Origin: a bacterium
GTDB taxonomy: Bacteria > Patescibacteriota > Minisyncoccia > UBA6257 > JAGOQP01
Direction of reading: 5' to 3'
NCBI GenBank assembly: GCA_021814695.1
Contig: JAKAHY010000002.1
Coordinates: 8,920 to 72,919 of the forward strand
DNA: 64,000 nt
In this document: one piece after another, positions 2,672-49,500 of the stretch
How positions within the stretch are numbered: position 1 is the stretch's first letter
Layout: the number at the start of each line of letters is the position of its first letter
Made by a program: the position numbers and the translations under genes
The notes under the pieces: generated by a model
Told to the model about the DNA's origin: nothing
Databases searched by the model: none
What the model saw: the letters and a program-made list of their open reading frames with translations, nothing else

Positions 2672-2988
2672 GTGGAGATGGCGAGAGTTGAACTCGCGTC
2701 CAGAAAGAGGGATTGAAAGCGTCTACGGGCGTATCTTCTTTTGGAAGCTGATTTGCTTTCTGATTGTCCCTACGGATACGAAAGCGCTTTCCGTGGGTAA
2801 GCCTCAAATATAACACCGGCGATTTCCCCATGAGACATCGGGAGCCGATGGCTTACGCACGAACTAAAAAGTTCTTAAGCGTATGCAAGTGCTACATTTC
2901 TGTTAGCAGATTTGTTTTGGCGGATTTACAAGTCGCCGCTTGACCCGCAACTTTCAAAGAACTCTATCTGTCAAAGCCCAGCATCCCC
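2672..2988 (-). ncRNA. ssrA: tmRNA (SsrA), about 317 nt
   Basis: The 5' GGGGATGCTGGGCTTTGAC pairs with the 3' ...CATCTCCAC, giving G3:U70. The T arm is GCGAG-TTCAACT-CTCGC. An internal tag frame GCT AAC AGA AAT GTA GCA CTT GCA TAC GCT TAA encodes ANRNVALAYA* (2875-2907), which resembles E. coli ANDENYALAA. It is adjacent to smpB. Confidence 0.88.
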
Positions 2989-3426: not shown

Positions 3427-3469
3427 CTGTTTATTTATGATAGTGCCTTGTGGGATTTTTTTGCAAGCG

Positions 3470-3480
3470 ATGTGATATAA
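3470..3480 (+). promoter_or_regulatory. Extended -10 promoter TGTGATATAAT (copy 1 of 4)
   Basis: TGTGATATAAT sits within a conserved GCAAGCGATGTGATATAATGAAACAAAT block, 18 nt before ATG 3499. No Shine-Dalgarno sequence is present. Confidence 0.65.
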
Positions 3481-3498
3481 TGAAACAAATAAAAAACT

Positions 3499-5643
3499 AT
3501 GAAAAAATCTTCATTAATCGTGGTCATTTTGCTTGTTGTGGCAAGCGTAGGAATGACCGTCATCTTTTCAAATCAAGTGTCGATAAAGGGATTTCTATCG
3601 AGCGTTTATTCTACTGCATCAGGCAGAAATCATATACAGCTGGCAAACGCTCAGTCCTTGGGACAGGGGGTTGTAGTTTTTAAAGCGCAATTTGGCCATT
3701 TGGAAGCAACCGGCCAAGTTGTCTCCGGTATTTCCGGACTAGCGGGGCTGCCGGTGACAAAATTTGTTCCCGACAGAGACCTTTCGGATTCTGAAAAAAA
3801 GCAGGTTGAAGTAAACATCACCGAAGAGAACACCGTTTTCGGATTTATTGTGGCAAAAAACGTTTCATTAGGGCAGGGAATCGGTTTTAACATTCCCCAA
3901 GGAGAAGTTTATAACTACGGTTTTTATGTGAATTCCGACATCCTTCCTCAAGGATGGACATATAACTCTTCTTGCGTAGAGACGGGAGGAAATATTAAAT
4001 TATCTGCCGGCCAACAAAGCGAATGCACGATAGGTTTTTATCTGAAACCAACGCCTGCGCCGGTTACTCCTCCCGCTTCGACGTCCACTCCCGTCTCACC
4101 TCAGGAAGGAGCGTCAGGTACCGTTATTAGTGAAGATTCCGGTTCTGGATCGCTGCAGTTTGTAAAAAATATTTTGGACTTAAGTACGGGGTGGAAAAAC
4201 CCCGGATCGGATAAAATATTGGACGCAAAAATCGTTGAATTATACGGAAAGAAATTTCTTATTGTTTCGACTCAAAACAAACATTTGCTTGTTTACGATG
4301 CTTCAAACCAGTTTTCGCCGGTTCTTTTGAAAGATAATGATTTATCAGGCAGTAACGTGTCGGCGTTTTATCTTGTGGTTTTAGATAATTTCAATTACGT
4401 ATTTGCCTGGGGAGGAAACTCTGCCAACTACGGATCTTTTAAGATTGAACAAGACGGATCTGCGTCTCTGGTAAAAAGTTACAAACCTGACCAATATAGC
4501 GTTACTCAACCGAATTTGGTTTTCGGGTTGTTTAGAGGGTTAGACGGTAAAGCGTATGGATTTGGAGGGAACGGGGGCGATGGATGGCTAACTATTTATG
4601 ACGTGTCCGATCCGGCAAACATCAGCGAAATTGGATCATATCAAGATGGCTTAGTCGGGAATCACTGCGGCAATTATGGTCTGATTGGATTGGACAGGCC
4701 GCTTCAATGGAATACTTCTCAACAAGGGAACAAGCTTTATCTGGTAACTCATGCGGACCAGTGCGTCCAGCGGCTGCATACTTCCGGAGACGCCAGAATT
4801 TATATTTTTGACGTTTCTGATCCAAAAAATCCGCAGCTTTCCCATCAATATGAGCTTTCCGGTTCTTTTAACCACATACCTTCGGACGCGACTAAGGCCG
4901 AACAGACATTTCTTTTTGGCGGGATCGCCGACATTGCCGTTGATTCAAATTCGGGTAAGGTTTTTGATTTTTACAGGACGGTTTTTGATTGGCAGGGGCC
5001 ATCCTGGTCTCAGATAGCAAACATAGTGCATGGTACTTTGTTTAGATACAGAACCGGACTGGTCACTCTTTCACTGCAATCGGACGGTTCTCTAAAAGAA
5101 TTGTCGCGGGCTTTATTGTGCGAACAAAAGGGCCCAATGTATGATGGTGGCGGTCCGCAATATTATCGATGCGGCGACGTGGATGGAAACGACAAAAATA
5201 CCCAAGGCGGATATGATTATTCGGCAAGAAATTCTCAACAAAATTACAACGGAGTTTTTCTCCTCAGTGGGCCGGGAAATAGCGGTCAGGTGGGCTTACT
5301 AAGGAGTGATAATAGTTTTGTTGTCATTCCCGATACCGCCGGAGAGATGACTAAATTTAAGACGGCTATTAAAGATTCATCTTATTATTCGAATATCTAT
5401 AATCCCGCTATCAATGGTGTTGTGACCCAGGTTGACAGTAAAACATTTGCCATCTATCAATTTGATAGTTATTCGTTAAGCGTCGTTAAGGTTTTGTTGT
5501 CGCAATCTCTTGTGGGGGGATCGAAAAATCCCTCTCCTCCAGTGACCGGAGTTGCGCCTTCGGCAAACGTACCACTAACATCACCCGCATTTTCATTTAA
5601 TGCGCTCCTGAACATCTTCAGAAGGATACTTAACAACTACTAA
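3499..5643 (+). CDS. Secreted/surface LVIVD-repeat (beta-propeller-type) protein, paralogue 1
   Basis: It has an N-terminal hydrophobic signal/anchor. LVIVD-like repeats include LTIYDVSDPANISEIG, IYIFDVSDPKNPQLS and LLVYDASNQFSPVL. An S/P/T linker is followed by the C-terminal tail PAFSFNALLNIFRRILNNY. Confidence 0.8.
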   Translation: MKKSSLIVVILLVVASVGMTVIFSNQVSIKGFLSSVYSTASGRNHIQLANAQSLGQGVVVFKAQFGHLEATGQVVSGISGLAGLPVTKFVPDRDLSDSEKKQVEVNITEENTVFGFIVAKNVSLGQGIGFNIPQGEVYNYGFYVNSDILPQGWTYNSSCVETGGNIKLSAGQQSECTIGFYLKPTPAPVTPPASTSTPVSPQEGASGTVISEDSGSGSLQFVKNILDLSTGWKNPGSDKILDAKIVELYGKKFLIVSTQNKHLLVYDASNQFSPVLLKDNDLSGSNVSAFYLVVLDNFNYVFAWGGNSANYGSFKIEQDGSASLVKSYKPDQYSVTQPNLVFGLFRGLDGKAYGFGGNGGDGWLTIYDVSDPANISEIGSYQDGLVGNHCGNYGLIGLDRPLQWNTSQQGNKLYLVTHADQCVQRLHTSGDARIYIFDVSDPKNPQLSHQYELSGSFNHIPSDATKAEQTFLFGGIADIAVDSNSGKVFDFYRTVFDWQGPSWSQIANIVHGTLFRYRTGLVTLSLQSDGSLKELSRALLCEQKGPMYDGGGPQYYRCGDVDGNDKNTQGGYDYSARNSQQNYNGVFLLSGPGNSGQVGLLRSDNSFVVIPDTAGEMTKFKTAIKDSSYYSNIYNPAINGVVTQVDSKTFAIYQFDSYSLSVVKVLLSQSLVGGSKNPSPPVTGVAPSANVPLTSPAFSFNALLNIFRRILNNY

Positions 5644-5685: not shown

Positions 5686-5687
5686 AA

Positions 5688-5698
5688 TGTGATATAAT
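5688..5698 (+). promoter_or_regulatory. Extended -10 promoter TGTGATATAAT (copy 2)
   Basis: This is the same 11-mer. The hexamer ends 7 nt before ATG 5706, which implies a leaderless or nearly leaderless mRNA. Confidence 0.6.
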
Positions 5699-5705
5699 GA
5701 AACAA

Positions 5706-8321
5706 ATGAAAAAAACATTACTCATCGGGTTTATTGTGGTCGGCATTGTAAGCTTTTCGGCATTTACCGCGCATGCTCAGTCGGTCAATTATCTTAGTAA
5801 ATTTTTTGCAGATGTCTACGGAGCGTTTTTTGGGAATTCCCAAACGCAAAAAGTTGACGCCCAAACAGTGGGTAATGGAACACTTACTATTCATGCTCAG
5901 ATATGTCAGACGCTCGGGAATTTCGAAAATCCAAGCAGTGCGACCTGTTCTGGTACTCCTCGCGACCCCAATTCTACGGAGTCTCCGTTATTTGTTTATG
6001 ATGTCCAGCGCATAGTTGGGAATGGAGCGAGCGCTCAAGTTACCACAGTTCTTTCAGGTATCGGTCCCGGACAAAGTTATTCGTTACCGGCGAATACTCC
6101 AAACGCTAGTAATAATAACAGAGATGAGTACGTGATTGTGTTTAAGGGGGCACCGACAAATTATTTGTACGTGAGACAAGGAGGAAATTTTGATTTGCCC
6201 TATAAATTTTCAATTTCTTCCGGACAAAATACTCAAGTAAATATTCCTTATGTTATTTATACGGCGATTGAATCAACGGGTCCTGTTGGCACTACTGTTA
6301 CCGCCGATATTGTTGATGGCAATGGAAATTTTGTCAGAGCGCTGACGGCTTCAGAAATTCAATCGGTATCCTTTGACATCCAGCATTCGGTTCCGGCCAC
6401 CGGAGGATATGTCGGATCGCATGCGAACAATTTTGATACTCAAGTTTCTTCGGGAAAATTAAATACTTCATATCAGCTTGCGACCTATGTCCATTCCGGT
6501 TCAATTTTGACAAATATTAAGCCACCATCCGGTTACGTAGTCAGATCAATTAAGCCGGGAACATATTTTGATCCTACTGATGACGTTACTATTCATTTTA
6601 CCAAGTCTCCTGTTTCGTCTCAGGTTCAAAAAGTTGATCAAATGCTCTATGTTCCTAATGGAATTAGCTATGTAAAAAAAATAGCTCAAACATATTCGGA
6701 CAATGAATACAAATATTCGAATCTTGACGTTGATTTATTTGCTTATTATGGAAACAATAATCGTCCTTTTCCCTTGAACTGGACAGTTGCCAAATATTCG
6801 GGAGTTCCTTATTTGTTTATGAATGGAGCAGGAAAGATAGTTATTTATAATATTTCCGATCCTAAAAATCCCAAACAAGTTAGTGAATATGTTCTTTCCG
6901 GTTTGGAAAAATTTAATCAATACAAAGATCGTCAGGGAAATACTTATGGACAGTGTTCTCCTAACCAAGAAGGTACTCATGATTTTATAACTGGAGCCGG
7001 TAAAGTTTTTGCTCTTGATGATTCCCCTTATCTTTTGATTGACATTCAGAGACCGGGTGGGCCAGGCCCTGGAGGGACGGCAGTTTTGTCCTTAGATCCT
7101 TCAACTATGGCCATAACCGCCTATCCTCAATGGACCGAGTGTAACAGTGGTCAAGATACTCCCGGAACCGCTTTCGGAATGTATAAAGGAAGTGACGGAA
7201 ATACTTATTTTATTTCCCAATTCCCGAATAATGCATATGATACGGGTGGAGTAGATACCGGGAATATTGGTATTTACACAATCAATTCTGCTGGTATTGC
7301 CAATAAAGTTGTCGTTCTCAGCGGAATGTCCGGGATTGCTCCGAGTTTGGATTATTCTAATGGAACAATCTCTGTTGTTTCCGTTGGAAGTAAAAAATAT
7401 CTTATTGGTAATGGAAAATCATCTATCGCAAACATAAATTCGACCAGTGCACCAATTTATATTTACGATATTTCCAATCCAAAAAATATAATCAAAATCA
7501 ATCAACAGATCACGGTGTCTACGTCTGGGTCCGGCAGATTAAAAATTGACGAACAAGCCAATCGTATGTATGTTCAGTCATCCATTCCAAATCCTGCCGC
7601 AACATCAACTTCGTACACCATCCCCAAAACATTACCTATTTGGCAGGTATATGACTTGAGTGTTTTGCCCAGTACTCCAAAATTAATTGCTACTTATAAC
7701 AAACCAACCGACCTACTTAATTCAAGTCAAGTGAATGCTGATTTTTCTCAAATTACCAAGAGATTAAATATTGCATCGTCAGGTAATCTTGTGGATATAA
7801 ATAATTCTTCTTTCACTTACGGCGCCTACGGATATTCTTCTTCACTCCAGTTGATAAATGTTTCAAATAATTTAGCTTATATATCACTGTATACAAACGG
7901 AAAAAACCCTTGGGATACGATTGCCAATCAAGCCGGAGTAACGGACGGAAGCGAATACGGGACCAATGCTATTCAATTTATAGTTGACGTGTCCAATGCG
8001 TCCAGTCCCAAAATACTTGGAATGATATTCGGGCATACGGAATATTCTGCTTACGGACTTTCCGCCGGCGGATGGTTTGATGTTCCTCTTTACGGAAGTA
8101 TCTATAACTATAACGGATATATTTACCGAGCCAATTTCCGCATCGCTGATGTATGGAAATTGGGGAATCCTCCGGCCCAAAGTACGGGAGGTGCTGGAAG
8201 TGGGGCTGGTGCGAGCGGCACTGGAACTACCGAAGGAGGATCTGCGCCATCATCAGTTCAATCTCCATTTTCTTTCAGTTCTCTTTTGAAGATATTCCAG
8301 AGAGTGTTTAATAATCAATAA
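5706..8321 (+). CDS. Secreted/surface LVIVD-repeat protein, paralogue 2
   Basis: I prefer the start at MKKTLLIG, by analogy with its paralogues and because ATG 5697 lies inside the -10 box. Repeats include IVIYNISDPKNPKQVS, IYIYDISNPKNIIKI and FIVDVSNASSPKIL. A G/S/A/T linker is followed by the tail SPFSFSSLLKIFQRVFNNQ. Confidence 0.8.
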   Translation: MKKTLLIGFIVVGIVSFSAFTAHAQSVNYLSKFFADVYGAFFGNSQTQKVDAQTVGNGTLTIHAQICQTLGNFENPSSATCSGTPRDPNSTESPLFVYDVQRIVGNGASAQVTTVLSGIGPGQSYSLPANTPNASNNNRDEYVIVFKGAPTNYLYVRQGGNFDLPYKFSISSGQNTQVNIPYVIYTAIESTGPVGTTVTADIVDGNGNFVRALTASEIQSVSFDIQHSVPATGGYVGSHANNFDTQVSSGKLNTSYQLATYVHSGSILTNIKPPSGYVVRSIKPGTYFDPTDDVTIHFTKSPVSSQVQKVDQMLYVPNGISYVKKIAQTYSDNEYKYSNLDVDLFAYYGNNNRPFPLNWTVAKYSGVPYLFMNGAGKIVIYNISDPKNPKQVSEYVLSGLEKFNQYKDRQGNTYGQCSPNQEGTHDFITGAGKVFALDDSPYLLIDIQRPGGPGPGGTAVLSLDPSTMAITAYPQWTECNSGQDTPGTAFGMYKGSDGNTYFISQFPNNAYDTGGVDTGNIGIYTINSAGIANKVVVLSGMSGIAPSLDYSNGTISVVSVGSKKYLIGNGKSSIANINSTSAPIYIYDISNPKNIIKINQQITVSTSGSGRLKIDEQANRMYVQSSIPNPAATSTSYTIPKTLPIWQVYDLSVLPSTPKLIATYNKPTDLLNSSQVNADFSQITKRLNIASSGNLVDINNSSFTYGAYGYSSSLQLINVSNNLAYISLYTNGKNPWDTIANQAGVTDGSEYGTNAIQFIVDVSNASSPKILGMIFGHTEYSAYGLSAGGWFDVPLYGSIYNYNGYIYRANFRIADVWKLGNPPAQSTGGAGSGAGASGTGTTEGGSAPSSVQSPFSFSSLLKIFQRVFNNQ

Positions 8322-8333
8322 TAATTTGAAACA

Positions 8334-8358
8334 ATCCCCCTAGCTGGGGGATTTTTTT
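8334..8358 (+). terminator. Rho-independent terminator
   Basis: ATCCCCC-tagct-GGGGGAT followed by TTTTTT. Confidence 0.8.
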
Positions 8359-8366
8359 GCAAGCAA

Positions 8367-8377
8367 TGTGATATAAT
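8367..8377 (+). promoter_or_regulatory. Extended -10 promoter TGTGATATAAT (copy 3)
   Basis: GCAAGCAATGTGATATAATAAAACAAAT lies 19 nt before ATG 8397. Confidence 0.65.
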
Positions 8378-8396
8378 AAAACAAATAAAAATAACC

Positions 8397-10580
8397 ATGA
8401 AAAAATATTCATTAATTGTGATTATCTTACTTGTTGTTGCAAGTATAGGGATTACCGCTATCTTTTCAAGTCAAGTGTCGATAACCGGATTTCTTTTGAG
8501 CGTTTACTCAACTGTTTCGGGGAGCAATCAAATACAGAGAGTAAATGCACAAACGACAGGCCAAGGAACCATATTATTCCAAGGCCAATTCGGTCATCTT
8601 GAATCGACCGGAAAGGTCACTACCGGAATTTCGGGCTTATCCGGACTTCCGGTGATGAAATTTGTTAAAGACCGTGACCTATCTAGCGATGAAAAAAATC
8701 AGATTAGAGTGGATGTTATTGAACATAACACTCCTTTTGAATTTGTAGTTGCAAAAAATATTTCGCTTGGAGAGGGTGTTAATTTTAATATTCCCGTAGG
8801 TTCGACATATAGATATAGTTTTTATGTTCACCCCGACTCGATTCCCTCCGGATGGGTTTATTATTCCGGTTGTTTAGAGACCGATGGGAATGTTTCGGTA
8901 CTGGCCGGTCAGCAAAGTACTTGCAGCATAGGATTTTATTTAAAGCCCGAAACAATCTCACCCCCTCCGGTCACATCAACATCTACGATCACGTCTACTC
9001 CTTCGGTAGGTGTTTCGGGAACTGTTGTCGGTGAAGATGCCAGCGCAGGATCGTTGCAGTTTGTAAAAAACGTTTTGGATTTAAGCTCACAAAGAAAGGG
9101 CATTATTTATGGAGTTTTGGACGCAAGAACCGTTAATTTGTATGGAAAAAATCTTCTGATAGTTGCTAGAGGTGGAGCTTACTCTGCTACCACTCCAACC
9201 TGGCATATGCTTGTTTATGATATAACCGATCCGCTTGCCCCGGTTCTTTTGAAGGATAATGATATGTCCGGAAGTGGCATAATCTATAGTTCTCCAATGA
9301 CCGGTTTGGCAGTGCTTGATGGCTTTAATTATGTATTTGTCCGTGGAAATGTCGGTTACGGTTCGTTTAAAATTAATCAGGACGGAACTGCGTCTCTTGT
9401 GAAAAGCTATAAATATTCTGAAGTTCAGCAGATACAGACAGATTTAATCAGGGGATTGTTCAACGGTCTGGATGGAAATATATACGGCTACGGAGGGTTT
9501 GTGCAGGATGGAGGACTCGTGCTTTATAACGTTTCCGATCCCGCTAATATTATTCAAGTTGGAACGTATACTAATGGTCTTGAACCAGCGATTGCCATCT
9601 ATGGACAAATTGGATTGAATCGCCAGAGCACTTGGGGCGTTGTTAAAGAAGGAGGCAAACTTTATCTTATTGCTCATGCGGACCAGTTGGTTCTGCGCCT
9701 TCATACGGATTATGATGGAATGATTTATGTTTTTGATGTGTCCAATCCGGCAAGTCCGCAGCTTTCACATATCTATAAAATGTCCAGCTCCTTTAATCAC
9801 CTTCCTTCCGATATGACTTCGTATGAGAAGATGTTTCTTTACGGAGGAGAAGCTAATATATCGGTTGATCCAATATCAAATAGAGTATTTGATTTTTACA
9901 GAACGGTTTTTGATTGGCAGGGACCCAATCAGCTTAAGATAAAAGACATTCCTAAAGGAGCCTTGTTTCGTTATAGAAATGGAATAGCCGTTCTTTCAAT
10001 AGGAATCGATGGTTCTTTGAAATCAAGTTCCAGTAACATATTATTGTGCGAAAGAATAGCCATTCAAGATAATGGGACGTCAGGCGAAGATAAATGTGAT
10101 ACAAAGAGTCCCGAAACGGTTGGGGGATATTATAGTTCCAGTCTTTATGGAAACAGGAATCCTCAAGAAAATTATAACGGAGTATTTCTTCTTGGCGACG
10201 TGAATAATGTCGGACATGTAGGGCTGTTAAAAAGCGATGGTAGTTTTGTTATCATACCCGATCCAACCGGAGAAATGCTTAAATTCAAATCTGTCTTGGC
10301 TGACCCGTCGTATTATTCCGATCCTGGTTTTCGTTCGTCTCCAATCAATGGCATTGTCACTCAAGTTGATAGCAAAACCTTTGCAATATTTCAGATTGAT
10401 AATTATTCCATAAGTGTTACAAAGCTAAATCTATCACAATCCATAACGAGCGTAACACAAAAATCTTCGCCACCTACCACAAATGCCCCTAGTTCATTAA
10501 ATACATCATCTCCTACTCAGACTCCATTTTCCTTCAGCTCGCTCCTGAGAATATTTCAGAGGGTGTTCAATAGTCAGTAA
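8397..10580 (+). CDS. Secreted/surface LVIVD-repeat protein, paralogue 3
   Basis: It is collinear with paralogue 1 along its whole length. Repeats include LVLYNVSDPANIIQVG and MIYVFDVSNPASPQLS. The tail is TPFSFSSLLRIFQRVFNSQ. Confidence 0.8.
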   Translation: MKKYSLIVIILLVVASIGITAIFSSQVSITGFLLSVYSTVSGSNQIQRVNAQTTGQGTILFQGQFGHLESTGKVTTGISGLSGLPVMKFVKDRDLSSDEKNQIRVDVIEHNTPFEFVVAKNISLGEGVNFNIPVGSTYRYSFYVHPDSIPSGWVYYSGCLETDGNVSVLAGQQSTCSIGFYLKPETISPPPVTSTSTITSTPSVGVSGTVVGEDASAGSLQFVKNVLDLSSQRKGIIYGVLDARTVNLYGKNLLIVARGGAYSATTPTWHMLVYDITDPLAPVLLKDNDMSGSGIIYSSPMTGLAVLDGFNYVFVRGNVGYGSFKINQDGTASLVKSYKYSEVQQIQTDLIRGLFNGLDGNIYGYGGFVQDGGLVLYNVSDPANIIQVGTYTNGLEPAIAIYGQIGLNRQSTWGVVKEGGKLYLIAHADQLVLRLHTDYDGMIYVFDVSNPASPQLSHIYKMSSSFNHLPSDMTSYEKMFLYGGEANISVDPISNRVFDFYRTVFDWQGPNQLKIKDIPKGALFRYRNGIAVLSIGIDGSLKSSSSNILLCERIAIQDNGTSGEDKCDTKSPETVGGYYSSSLYGNRNPQENYNGVFLLGDVNNVGHVGLLKSDGSFVIIPDPTGEMLKFKSVLADPSYYSDPGFRSSPINGIVTQVDSKTFAIFQIDNYSISVTKLNLSQSITSVTQKSSPPTTNAPSSLNTSSPTQTPFSFSSLLRIFQRVFNSQ

Positions 10581-30299: not shown

Positions 30300-30337
30300 C
30301 AAAAACAAAAATTACCCAAACGGGTAATTTTTGTTTT

Positions 30338-30466
30338 GGGTGTTGACGGGGTAGGATGCGGGGTGGTCGAGGGGCTGCAAGCCCCTCGTGTTGGAAATTA
30401 TTCAAAACCGAGGGTTTTGAAGGAGCGAATATAATGAGCGACGTCCGATTTCCCGTTACCCGCTCA
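30338..30466 (+). repeat. tRNA-3'-end-capped structured repeat ('type A' unit), Gly(GCC) copy
   Basis: It reads GGGGTGGT, P1 CGAGGGGCT-gca-AGCCCCTCG, TGTTGGAAA, P3 TTCAAAACC-gag-GGTTTTGAA, then ...GAGCGACGTCCGATTTCCCGTTACCCGCTCA. The last ~20 nt repeat the tRNA-Gly 3' end. Confidence 0.8.
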
Positions 30467-30502
30467 AAAACAAAAAGCACCACAAGGGTGTTTTTTGTTT
30501 TC

Positions 30503-30653
30503 TGTCCGCCCGGAAGGGAGTCTCACGTCGCTCCGACATTGCGTCGGAGCTCCCAAGACACCCTCGGTTTCTTGACGCTCCTCCGGAGCTTTTTCCTACA
30601 CGGGAGATTAAGCATCTCCCGACCCCTCTCTATTCAATTCCTTGTTGACGAAC
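30503..30653 (-). repeat. Type A unit, Lys copy 2
   Basis: On the minus strand it reads GGAATTGAATAGAGAGGGGT, P1 CGGGAGAT-gctta-ATCTCCCG, TGTAGGAAAAAG, CTCC-gga-GGAG, CAAGAAACC-gag-GGTGTCTTG, GCTCCGAC-gcaat-GTCGGAGC, then GACGTGAGACTCCCTTCCGGGCGGACA. Confidence 0.8.
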
Positions 30654-30689
30654 AAAACAAAAAATATTCACAAAGGATATTTCTTATTT

Positions 30690-30827
30690 TGTCCGCCCGG
30701 AAGGGAATCTCACGTCGCTCCGACCTTGCGTCGGAGCTCCTTAAAACCATTCGGTTTTAATATTTCCTCCACGGAAAACCTTCGGTTTCCCGACCCCATC
30801 CGATTTGATTCCTTTACTGACGAATAT
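30690..30827 (-). repeat. Type A unit, Lys copy 1
   Basis: On the minus strand it reads GGAATCAAATCGGATGGGGT, P1 CGGGAAACC-gaa-GGTTTTCCG, TGGAGGAAA, AAAACC-gaat-GGTTTT, GCTCCGAC-gcaag-GTCGGAGC, then GACGTGAGATTCCCTTCCGGGCGGACA. Confidence 0.8.
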
Positions 30828-30865
30828 AAAACAAAAAGCACCACAAGGGTGTTTTTTGTTTTCTG

Positions 30866-30938
30866 TCCGCCCGGAAGGGATCGAACCTTCGACCGTCTCC
30901 TTAAGAGGGAGCTGCTCTACCAGCTGAGCTACGGGCGG
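30866..30938 (-). tRNA. tRNA-Lys (anticodon CTT)
   Basis: The acceptor stem is CCGCCCG/CGGGCGG (C1:G72). The D arm is GCTC-AGCTGGTA-GAGC. The anticodon loop is CTCTTAA. The T arm is GAAGG-TTCGATC-CCTTC. CCA is not encoded. Confidence 0.88.
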
Positions 30939-47837: not shown

Positions 47838-47960
47838 AAAATATCCCGACAAGTGAGGGGATTTTGTATAGTCCTTCTTCGCATAAAGCTTCGAAGGACA
47901 CTTTTCGTCTGGCTTGCACTTCGTAGCTCGCCAGGGCGAAGAAGTGAGCGGGTAAGGGGA
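47838..47960 (-). repeat. 123-nt direct repeat, copy 1 (tRNA-Gly 3' end + type B motif)
   Basis: By eye it is identical to 48066-48188, at an offset of 228 nt. On the minus strand it reads CCCCTTACCCGCTCA, then CTTCTTCGCCCTGGCGAGCTACGAAGTGCAAGC...GTCCTTCGAAGCTTTATGCGAAGAAGGAC...ATCCCCTCACTTGTCGGGAT. Confidence 0.85.
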
Positions 47961-48062
47961 AGTCTTACGCTCACCCCCGACCCCCGCTTAAGAAACCTTC
48001 GGGTTTCTTACGTCCCTATTTTCCAACACGGGGGTTCGCATTCGACTCCCAAACTCACCCAC
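47945..48062 (-). repeat. Type A unit, Gly(UCC) copy (variant arrangement)
   Basis: On the minus strand it reads GGGAGTCG-aatg-CGAACCCCCG, TGTTGGAAAATA, TAAGAAACC-cgaa-GGTTTCTTA, then GGGGGTCGGGGGTGAGCGTAAGACTTCCCCTTACCCGCTCA. Confidence 0.7.
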
Positions 48063-48065
48063 AAA

Positions 48066-48188
48066 AAAATATCCCGACAAGTGAGGGGATTTTGTATAGT
48101 CCTTCTTCGCATAAAGCTTCGAAGGACACTTTTCGTCTGGCTTGCACTTCGTAGCTCGCCAGGGCGAAGAAGTGAGCGGGTAAGGGGA
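48066..48188 (-). repeat. 123-nt direct repeat, copy 2 (overlaps the genuine tRNA-Gly(UCC) 3' end)
   Basis: See copy 1. Its upstream end is the real T-stem and acceptor 3' strand of the tRNA at 48175-48245. Confidence 0.85.
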
Positions 48189-48307: not shown

Positions 48308-48922
48308 ATGTTTTTGGACAGGTTCGATAGATTGCCTAAAAAAATTAGAAGGACCGCATGGGTTGTTATCGGATTGGTGGTTTTGATGTTGATTGCATAT
48401 TTGGCGTGGAGTTACTTCGGTTCCCATGTGCCGGGAGATTTCAACGAGGCCAGGATAGCGGCGTCCGTGGAAGCTAAAACGATTGCCGATACCCTGAAAG
48501 ATTCTCCTGAGAATCTTCAAAAAATACAACAACTTCAGGAAAAGTGGAAAGACGATCAGGCGCTGACACTTTTGGTTGCGGAGTTCCAAAAAAACCAGGC
48601 AGCCAGAGATGCATCGGTTAAACTTGCGGGAGAACTGGAAAGAATGGCTCAGGCCATTCCCGACATTCGTCCCAAAAAATCCGCCGAAAATGCTTTAGTT
48701 GCAATAACTACCGAAACTCAGTTGATTTATAAACTGGTCTCGTTTAATGATGATATGAGTCAGTTGCTTAAGTTGATGCAGGATAAAATTACGAATAAAA
48801 TCTACGGGGTGGATAAAGTAAATCAATTAGTGGATGCCATTAATTCCGAAGTCGATTCGATAAATCAGCTCAATAATCAGTTTGAAGATTATCTGAAAAC
48901 GTTTGACGGGTCGTTTAATTAA
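48308..48922 (+). CDS. Membrane-anchored coiled-coil protein, unknown function
   Basis: It has an N-terminal TM segment (WVVIGLVVLMLIAYLAW), and the remainder is helical. Confidence 0.55.
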   Translation: MFLDRFDRLPKKIRRTAWVVIGLVVLMLIAYLAWSYFGSHVPGDFNEARIAASVEAKTIADTLKDSPENLQKIQQLQEKWKDDQALTLLVAEFQKNQAARDASVKLAGELERMAQAIPDIRPKKSAENALVAITTETQLIYKLVSFNDDMSQLLKLMQDKITNKIYGVDKVNQLVDAINSEVDSINQLNNQFEDYLKTFDGSFN

Positions 48923-48941
48923 TTTAGGTTTTTATAAAATT

Positions 48942-49014
48942 GGGCCGTTAGCTTAGTTGGTAGAGCGCCTCGTTTGCAACGAGGAGGTCACCGGTTCGAA
49001 TCCGGTACGGTCCA
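48942..49014 (+). tRNA. tRNA-Ala (anticodon TGC)
   Basis: The acceptor stem is GGGCCGT/ACGGTCC with G3:U70. The anticodon arm is CCTCG-TTTGCAA-CGAGG. The T arm is ACCGG-TTCGAAT-CCGGT. Confidence 0.92.
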
Positions 49015-49052
49015 CATAACAAAAAAATTGCCTAGCGCAATTTTTTTGTTAT

Positions 49053-49184
49053 GATGAATCAGGGTCGGTTTGAATATTTAGGGGTCGGGGTATTTGTAAA
49101 TACCCCGAGTAAGAAAATTTGAGAAACCGTGGGTTTCTCACGAACGAATGAAATGAGTGAGGTGAGATTCCGGTACGGTCCACA
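49053..49184 (+). repeat. Type A unit, Ala(UGC) copy
   Basis: It reads GGTTTGAATATTTAGGGGT, P1 CGGGGTATTT-gta-AAATACCCCG, AGTAAGAAA, TGAGAAACC-gtg-GGTTTCTCA, then ...GAGGTGAGATTCCGGTACGGTCCACA. The last 19 nt repeat the tRNA-Ala 3' end. It ends 4 nt before ATG 49189. Confidence 0.8.
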
Positions 49185-49188
49185 AAAT

Positions 49189-49500
49189 ATGAAAAAATCA
49201 GAATATCTTTTGAGAAGTTTTATAAATGCGGCTGGAGTATTTGTTTATGTAGCATTGATTGCCTGGCTGGGTTTTAACAGCAAAACAATTTTTGGAGAAG
49301 CTCCAAGTTTTATTGCGCCATTGTTTATGCTTCTTTTGTTTGTCGTGTCGGCTTGTATAACGGGCCTATTGGTCTTGGGTAAGCCAATTCTTATGTATTT
49401 GAACAATCAGAGAAGAGAGGCCATTGTTTTATTTTCGGTTACTCTTAGCTGGCTCGTATTGTTTTTGGCGATTATCGCGACTGCTCTTGCCTTAAGATAA
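49189..49500 (+). CDS. Small membrane protein (3 TM), unknown function
   Basis: I prefer the start at MKKSEYLL. The upstream 20 codons of ORF 49129 are a translation of the type A repeat. Confidence 0.6.
   Translation: MKKSEYLLRSFINAAGVFVYVALIAWLGFNSKTIFGEAPSFIAPLFMLLLFVVSACITGLLVLGKPILMYLNNQRREAIVLFSVTLSWLVLFLAIIATALALR

Follow-up and report, generated by a model that had tools for sequence, protein, structure and literature searches.

Repeat units closed by target-derived arms at tRNA and protein-gene ends of Patescibacteria: a probable protein-less mobile element next to a tRNA-Ala(UGC) gene

The 64-kb stretch of the Patescibacteria contig JAKAHY010000002.1 analysed here (the window, to which all positions refer) contains a tRNA-Ala(UGC) gene, followed by a hairpin, a 132-nt repeat unit and the start codon of a gene for a 103-aa membrane protein. 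The unit is probably a copy of a family of small, protein-less mobile elements of Patescibacteria (Paceibacteria/Parcubacteria), inserted between tRNA-Ala(UGC) and its original 3' end. Such elements would measure ~130-170 nt and be located at conserved-gene termini, with the T loop of tRNA genes as the most frequent site. Their structured core would be closed by a hairpin with both arms copied from the target, and the terminal stretch of the target would be duplicated as direct flanks. At the tRNA-Ala locus, the element would have brought in a hairpin terminator and a tRNA 3' end of its own.

The order of features agrees with that described in the initial annotation: tRNA-Ala, hairpin, unit, and a cap (T2) at the end of the unit that is identical at 16 of 16 positions to the tRNA 3' segment (T1) and lies 4 nt before the ATG (Table 1). 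This 16-nt direct repeat (repeat family D17) comprises T-loop position 60, the last of the loop, followed by the 3' strands of the T stem and of the acceptor stem, the discriminator and CA; the tRNA gene itself does not encode CCA. The insert between the tRNA end and the cap end measures 168 nt and contains no open reading frame (ORF). In the left arm of the unit, GGTCGGTTTGAAT (49063-49075) matches, in decayed form, the reverse complement of the T loop and T-stem 3' strand of the tRNA; it is better kept in the orthologous unit of a syntenic genome (ACGGATTCGAATC in L129). The hairpin between tRNA and unit (ATAACAAAAAAATTGC-cta-GCGCAATTTTTTTGTTAT) folds with -20 kcal/mol (z = -8.2), and was not listed by a simple terminator scan because it contains too few G-C pairs (<3).

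Table 1. Features of the tRNA-Ala(UGC) locus and the other family copies of the window
Feature	Position	Strand	Remarks
tRNA-Ala(UGC) gene, putative insertion target	48942..49015	+	ARAGORN; Rfam RF00005, 72.9 bits
T1, first 16-nt repeat copy, TCCGGTACGGTCCACA	49001..49016	+	belongs to the functional tRNA
A-tract, 16-19 bp palindromic hairpin, T-tract	49016..49052	.	bidirectional-terminator-like
Promoter-like site TTGCCT-16-TGTTATGAT	49028..49055	+	TATGAT with upstream TG (extended -10)
Unit, 132 nt	49053..49184	+	R1 covariance model match 49055-49184
Left arm X' and junction	49053..49080	+	
Conserved core	49081..49161	+	R1 114.8 bits, E 3e-31; Pa and Pc covariation
GGGGTC, core part	49081-49086	+	
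Hairpin Pa, core part	49087-49106	+	
Linker GAGTAAGAAAA between Pa and Pc, core part		+	family form CGTGKAGGAAA
Hairpin Pc, core part	49120-49140	+	loop CGTGG
3' tail of core	49141-49161	+	
GTGAGAT, T-loop-like inner right arm	49162..49168	+	tRNA T loop with positions 55-56 TC -> GA
Cap (T2), second copy of tRNA 3' segment, TCCGGTACGGTCCACA	49169..49184	+	16/16 identity to 49001-49016
Native junction AAAT and 103-aa membrane-protein ORF	49185..49500	+	ATG 49189, stop ends 49500
Copy after tRNA-Gly(GCC)	30337..30466	+	R1 120.1 bits
Distal copy after tRNA-Lys(CUU)	30503..30652	-	R1 120.8 bits
Proximal copy after tRNA-Lys(CUU)	30690..30824	-	R1 108.5 bits
Copy after tRNA-Pro(CGG)	35537..35682	+	R1 103.4 bits; orthologous copy in L114
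Rearranged copy after tRNA-Gly(UCC)	47945..48081	-	R1 68.2 bits, lowest of the six

Four syntenic genomes (the window and the loci L128, L129 and L130) have tRNA-Ala(UGC) directly upstream of the membrane-protein gene. Two of them are empty sites: in L130, which has the same upstream gene as the window and an ORF with 78% protein identity, the tRNA is followed by GAT and the ATG, so that it ends 3 nt before the start codon, while in L128 (67% identity, same downstream tRNA-Ser(UGA)) 46 nt precede the ATG. The window carries one unit and L129 (69% identity, same downstream cytidine deaminase) carries two, of which the one nearer the gene has a truncated cap and stops 10 nt short of the ATG. Since syntenic relatives hold zero, one or two units at the same junction, the unit at the tRNA-Ala junction is evidently an insertion. 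The hairpin preceding it has no counterpart at the two empty sites and is replaced in L129 by a different hairpin in the same place; it was presumably brought in by the element. The tRNA-Ala(UGC) of the two occupied genomes, the window and L129, is identical, and differs from the allele common to the two empty genomes. Among nine homologue loci inspected (10 records, two of them from one genome), units were found only in L129, and more distant homologues have other neighbours and no unit.

The membrane-protein gene natively starts 3-46 nt after tRNA-Ala, and the cap, AAAT and ATG of the window reproduce this native junction; AAAT also follows the tRNA at the empty site of L128 (CCACAAAAT). Because at the empty site of L130 the ATG comes only 3 nt after the tRNA, the cap is taken to be the native end of the tRNA, displaced (attR-like) and still attached to the neighbour gene that it had before. 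The original tRNA end and the membrane-protein gene are shifted ~170 bases downstream. Neither a hairpin nor a T-run lies between cap and ATG, and the lack of a terminator after the cap, correctly pointed out before, is explained by the fact that the sequence past the cap is native tRNA-downstream DNA, where the native tRNA has none. In L130 (1-416; compare window positions 48308-49189), only 2 nt separate the tRNA-Ala from the preceding stop codon, that of the upstream gene, and 3 nt from the following start codon. These gaps place the native tRNA in a tightly packed gene row, implying co-transcription and release of the mRNAs by tRNA processing.

The ORF at 49189-49500 encodes 103 aa with three hydrophobic stretches, without a match in a Pfam search, and a look-up of the exact protein found no record. 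It is conserved, as the initial annotation supposed, with 156 homologues of modal length 103 aa, all of them from Patescibacteria, and it is intact in both occupied genomes; the units of L129 also abut its ATG. The public gene call of 123 aa that starts at GTG 49129 (P0001; 49129-49500) runs into the repeat unit and is over-extended.

A covariance model (R1) built from the six copies of the window detected exactly these six in it (E 1e-17 to 6e-33; next match E 0.15), and the tRNA-Ala unit is thus no accidental similarity. Five of the eight tRNA genes in the window carry units, and each unit terminates in the 3' end of its own neighbouring tRNA. Outside the window, the core pattern GGGGTCGGG-N(8-30)-CCGTGKAGGAAA, scanned in bacterial contigs with one genome per species, matched at least 120 stretches, nearly all from metagenome-assembled genomes of Patescibacteria/Paceibacteria; a few matches, such as one in Frankia, are due to chance. 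Among the matches listed, R1 confirmed 110 copies in 100 loci, and ~48 of 128 pattern matches follow a tRNA on the same strand, the others being at protein-gene ends. The pattern had no match in 2.9 million viral contigs. Rfam 15 contained no family matching the unit, either at the gathering threshold over the whole window, where only tRNAs and the transfer-messenger RNA (tmRNA) were matched, or at E up to 10 for four copies. A literature search on repeats at tRNAs of the candidate phyla radiation, integrases with direct repeats and Parcubacteria MITEs (miniature inverted-repeat transposable elements) found nothing relevant.

All copies have the same architecture, composed of the gene body, X-Y1, a spacer, X', the core and X-Y2, where X-Y is the duplicated terminal stretch of the neighbouring gene and X' its inverted copy. 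The stretches that border the core immediately on its 5' and 3' sides are reverse complements of each other in every copy, and the closing hairpin that they form (9-17 bp) varies in sequence from copy to copy (~40 copies examined). The duplication extends over 15-125 nt from X to the gene terminus, in tRNAs as well as in fusA-, lepA/typA- and murD-like genes. Duplications of 3' ends after the core were found for fusA-like and other genes (L011, L034, L013, L028 and L023). When the gene runs in the opposite direction, its 5' end and upstream sequence are duplicated, as in the fusA-like gene of L025, the lepA/typA-like genes of L018 and L115 and the murD-like gene of L081. Orientation follows the geometry of the DNA, with the gene body always on the side of the left arm, whatever the direction in which the neighbour is transcribed. 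The cap is not specific for tRNAs.

Where the copy is linked to a tRNA, the T loop is where X begins, and a direct repeat of the tRNA 3' segment is also present at the five other window copies and at ~40 copies elsewhere. The right arm begins at T-loop positions 53-60 in all tRNA-linked copies. It usually reads GTGAGAT, in which GA replaces the TC of positions 55-56, and does so beside ~20 different tRNAs. The T loop is intact in the left arm, which extends across the point where the match of the right arm to the tRNA begins, and the closing hairpin of the tRNA-type copies contains a tandem G.A/A.G mismatch. Many T1/T2 pairs are 100% identical. In seven tRNA-linked copies (right arms of L041, L051, L056, L058, L066, L082 and L097), a GCGAAGC-type mini-hairpin (AGCGAAGCG) was observed between the T-loop copy and the T-stem 3' strand, and the motif recurs inside many cores.

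The core contains two covarying helices. Among 109 distinct copies, 94% of the cells of Pa and Pc are paired, compared with 83% in shuffles, and double-sided changes number 270 versus 68, mostly GC-AU swaps; both helices were also recovered by mutual information analysis. G-U outnumbers A-C by 14 to 1 in Pa, and the counts in Pc are 6 to 7. The variable base in CCGTGKAGGAAA is associated with a base of the Pc loop (U:A 31, G:U 28, others 23; Fisher P 6e-5, not tree-corrected), which may reflect a tertiary (K-W) pair. The G-U bias of Pa and this association are suggestive of a folded forward strand, be it RNA or single-stranded DNA. Folds of the single sequence of the unit gave z = -1.8 and -3.5 for the two strands. 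A GGGGTC/GATTCC helix proposed by RNAalifold was not accepted, one side being invariant and the pairing forced by the model. An acceptor-stem-like pairing of the 5' end of the unit with the cap, as in a tmRNA- or tRNA-like fold, was rejected on inspection of the Lys and Pro copies, and the helix order does not fit hepatitis delta virus-like or hammerhead topologies. In columns 45/48 and 66/67 of alignment A2, the purines immediately 5' of GGGGTC and the variable bases that come first in the 5' strand of Pa are mirror images (GG 29, AA 29, AG 14), forming a mirror-symmetric purine tract (RRGGGGTCGGGRR) that could represent a base triple or an alternative pairing.

The family spreads horizontally, since cores remain alike beside diverged genes and duplicated gene ends differ mostly at synonymous positions. 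Between the window and L129, the unit core is ~95% identical and the tRNA 100%, whereas the flanking ORF is 69% identical in protein, with 39 synonymous and 32 non-synonymous codon differences in 103. The duplicated ends of protein genes differ by 22 synonymous versus 9 non-synonymous codons (P 8e-7). Within identical flanks, the terminators of T1 and T2 can be unrelated hairpins, as in the Gly(GCC) and Pro loci of the window, and the Lys array has identical outer T copies around a middle one of only 70% identity. These patterns fit two working gene ends that evolved in different genomes and were joined later. In-situ target-site duplication followed by drift of an orphan copy was considered as the main mode, and the synonymous excess and the mosaic terminators rule against it. 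Spread would proceed by recombination through the duplicated target segment, either of the Campbell type or by double crossover after DNA uptake, and the core with its hairpin would be a cis-acting site, as a folded single strand or an RNA, for a factor supplied in trans.

Several observations weigh against a mobile element. No recombinase or reverse transcriptase was found in or near the elements, and neither a circular form nor an excision product was seen; the recombination step would thus be left to host homologous recombination after DNA uptake or to a trans-acting enzyme. In keeping with a protein-less element, neither a recombinase nor a reverse transcriptase was enriched among 1033 ORFs clustered from the genome loci. 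The top clusters were an ORF family without assigned identity in 13 loci, EF-G in 12 and, in 8, a family of 296 aa that by eye looks like a release factor; they are targets, not partners, and the window genes next to units are housekeeping genes. A new target requires other sequences in both arms and in the gene end that is carried along, a change for which simple integration offers no explanation, and the systematic TC-to-GA change of the right arm is unaccounted for by the element model. Near-identical cores at different tRNAs of one genome (L086/L089, L108/L117 and L042/L118) could reflect recent or frequent retargeting or concerted evolution, and purifying selection on an RNA useful to the host could also be the cause of core similarity. 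Finally, the closing hairpin looks freshly copied rather than selected, because its mismatches show no strand bias (G-U 18 versus A-C 12).

Retargeting is what a programmable, nucleic-acid-guided integration system would provide, with the left arm as guide across the crossover, the right arm as donor and the core as scaffold for a recombinase acting in trans. It would explain the presence of one core family on >20 tRNA species and on protein-gene ends, and we regard it as a speculative extension with a low probability. Target-derived arms, variable duplication length and easy retargeting would also follow automatically from a retroelement resembling short interspersed elements, in which target-primed reverse transcription of the core RNA creates T1 and T2 as a long variable duplication and snap-back creates the left arm. 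The identical T1/T2 pairs and the G-U tolerance of the forward-strand structure are in line with this origin, but the left arm includes target bases that lie further left than the start of the right-arm match and so is not a copy of the right arm. The mainly synonymous differences of older T1/T2 pairs, the mosaic terminators, the divergent middle copy of the Lys array and the lack of reverse transcriptase enrichment nearby also make a retroelement unlikely. Similarly unlikely is a trans-acting or processing RNA useful to the host (a tRNA 3'-end mimic, processing signal or stabiliser) that was spread by ordinary recombination. The strongly conserved core motifs with their covarying helices, the Pa bias, the possible tertiary pair and the high density at window tRNAs are what such an RNA would show; on the other side, no conserved promoter was seen, the position where it would lie is taken by the variable target-derived arm, hairpin terminators precede the units, orientation follows the gene body rather than transcription of the neighbour, and presence varies among close relatives. 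Direct repeats of tRNA 3' ends from the T loop are the classical attL/attR footprint, and decayed attachment (att) scars of ordinary prophages or genomic islands would leave them too. This origin is hardly credible given a conserved, covarying ~100-nt core between the repeats at >100 loci with many targets, the absence of integrase remnants among the ORFs of the loci or the window neighbourhood, and the absence of copies in the viral contigs.

The unit had been proposed in the initial annotation to be the 5' untranslated region or to carry the promoter of the membrane-protein gene. A dedicated cis-regulatory leader (riboswitch, attenuator or tRNA-sensing) or promoter module is very improbable, even though the unit takes up the whole stretch from a stable hairpin to the ATG of an ORF that is conserved and intact in both occupied genomes, its core is structured, and a candidate extended -10 (TGTTATGAT) lies at 49047-49055. 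Homologues lack the unit, and its number varies from zero to two in the syntenic relatives; units of this family also lie beside tRNAs, fusA, lepA-like, murD-like and many other genes, and in either orientation. Inspection by eye of the other window copies and the L129 units revealed no conserved promoter in front of them. The candidate -10 would predict a start near 49062 and make the unit a ~126-nt 5' untranslated region; the promoter scan found 2 sites against 1.9 expected by chance, a weak signal. The idea that the acceptor strand takes the place of a ribosome-binding site does not hold, as this is the native arrangement, seen in L130 with a real tRNA end, and no Shine-Dalgarno sequence was found in any homologue inspected, with or without a unit. 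Nor is this the only copy beside a start codon: 22 of 110 copies elsewhere (~20%) have a co-directional ORF starting within 40 nt. Because a stable hairpin now separates the ORF from the tRNA, the membrane-protein transcript would have to start in the element or read through it. Since most homologues lack the unit and a fifth of the other copies lie near co-directional starts, any 5' untranslated region or promoter role is plausibly a by-product of insertion.

TGTTATGAT resembles the TGATATAAT extended -10 boxes found upstream of three large genes of the window. These boxes and a AAACAAATAAAAA leader without Shine-Dalgarno sequence (regions 3449-3499, 5686-5716 and 8345-8397) are common to the paralogous genes at 3499-5643, 5697-8321 and 8397-10580, the first and third of which are 70-76% identical over long stretches.

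Other window copies showed arrangements of their own. At 30337-30938, two differing tRNA-Lys(CUU) units run towards the tRNA-Gly(GCC) unit, with one bidirectional terminator in common; in this array the tRNA-adjacent and last terminators are 100% identical over 53 nt and the middle one 70%. The unit after tRNA-Pro is followed at 35683-35750 by a second, diverged tRNA end with a terminator and then by a left arm (GGGGAATTGAATCGGAAG). Such an arm without core, halting exactly where the core would start, was observed at the Pro locus, L035 and L067. The Gly(UCC) copy is flanked by a 123-nt direct repeat with 100% identity (repeat family D2), and the Pa 3' strand (CCCCCGTGTTGGAAAA) precedes its Pc hairpin, the Pa 5' strand (GGGGGTCGGGGG) following it. 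The tRNA-Gly(UCC) (47838-48188, minus strand) is followed by a 108-nt structured segment and a terminator, which are duplicated together with the tRNA end (100% over 123 nt). Part of this segment resembles the sequence just downstream of the tmRNA gene (2542-2577), and the segment looks like a second repeat type. The tmRNA gene itself (2672-2988, minus strand) has the unusual predicted tag EAYPRKALSYP, whose end departs from the ALAA type that is common in such tags. At 32150-33643, among the tRNA genes, lies a gene for a CCA-adding enzyme with PolyA_pol head, tRNA_NucTran2_2 and HD domains, in keeping with the fact that none of the tRNA genes of the window encodes CCA.

Patescibacteria genomes are tiny, yet five of eight tRNA genes in 64 kb carry this element, and it recurs in >100 species-level genomes. 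A spare copy of a conserved gene end would provide homology on both sides whatever the neighbours, and thus a way for a non-coding element to spread. If the target-derived arms were guides, they would constitute a new programmable recombination system of very compact form, in effect a mobile guide cassette without protein, in bacteria whose genomes are very small. The element also accounts for two annotation problems, orphan tRNA 3' fragments and ORF calls that are over-extended, as is the 123-aa call. At the tRNA-Ala locus, the element-borne hairpin would have cut the gene off from its native tRNA-linked transcription.

One close parallel is with integrative elements of tRNA genes, such as tyrosine-integrase prophages and islands. 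In common with them, the unit has a direct repeat of the tRNA 3' end from the T loop (16 of 16 nt here), supplies a replacement 3' end that leaves the tRNA intact, shows empty and occupied sites in relatives (L128 and L130 versus L129), and forms tandem arrays. It differs in its small size (~170-300 nt, with neither integrase nor other ORF), in the presence of one core family at >20 tRNAs and protein-gene ends, and in its target-derived inverted arm. Like the attP(+) hairpin of CTX phage and integron attC sites, the unit has an imperfect hairpin whose stem varies in sequence while its shape is kept; as in attP(+), the stem mimics the double-stranded target, with mismatches beside the presumed crossover. 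Unlike them, it encloses a conserved ~100-nt structured loop and has many different targets, and no core sites of the XerCD or IntI type were identified, no Xer/dif model for Patescibacteria having been applied; we know of no cognate recombinase for the unit hairpin.

MITEs and repetitive extragenic palindromic (REP) sequences, including REPINs, are likewise short, non-coding, multi-copy, hairpin-forming and mobilised in trans. However, the inverted arms of the unit differ in each copy and equal the local target instead of being conserved terminal inverted repeats, the transposase-binding sites of MITEs, and its duplication is 15-125 nt up to the gene end, not short and fixed. A conserved scaffold followed by a target-derived stretch recalls the omega-RNA of IS200/605 TnpB, IS110 bridge RNA and the exon- and intron-binding sites (EBS/IBS) of group II introns, and the internal left arm is complementary to the target across the junction, as in guide-RNA elements. 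In contrast to these, the two target-derived stretches of the unit are mutually complementary, nothing in those systems corresponds to the duplicated gene end, there was no Rfam match, and no tnpB, iscB, IS110 recombinase or reverse transcriptase was found in the genome loci or the window neighbourhood. Homing elements (introns and inteins) also occupy highly conserved targets, here tRNA and the motifs of EF-G and LepA-like GTPases, and their horizontal spread outpaces host-gene divergence, but the units neither interrupt a gene nor splice, they duplicate the gene end, and they have no homing endonuclease. The unit lacks the features by which MITEs, the described guide RNAs and cis-regulatory leaders are defined, and is rated here as a miniature integrative element, bearing the footprint of tRNA-integrative elements without their integrase.

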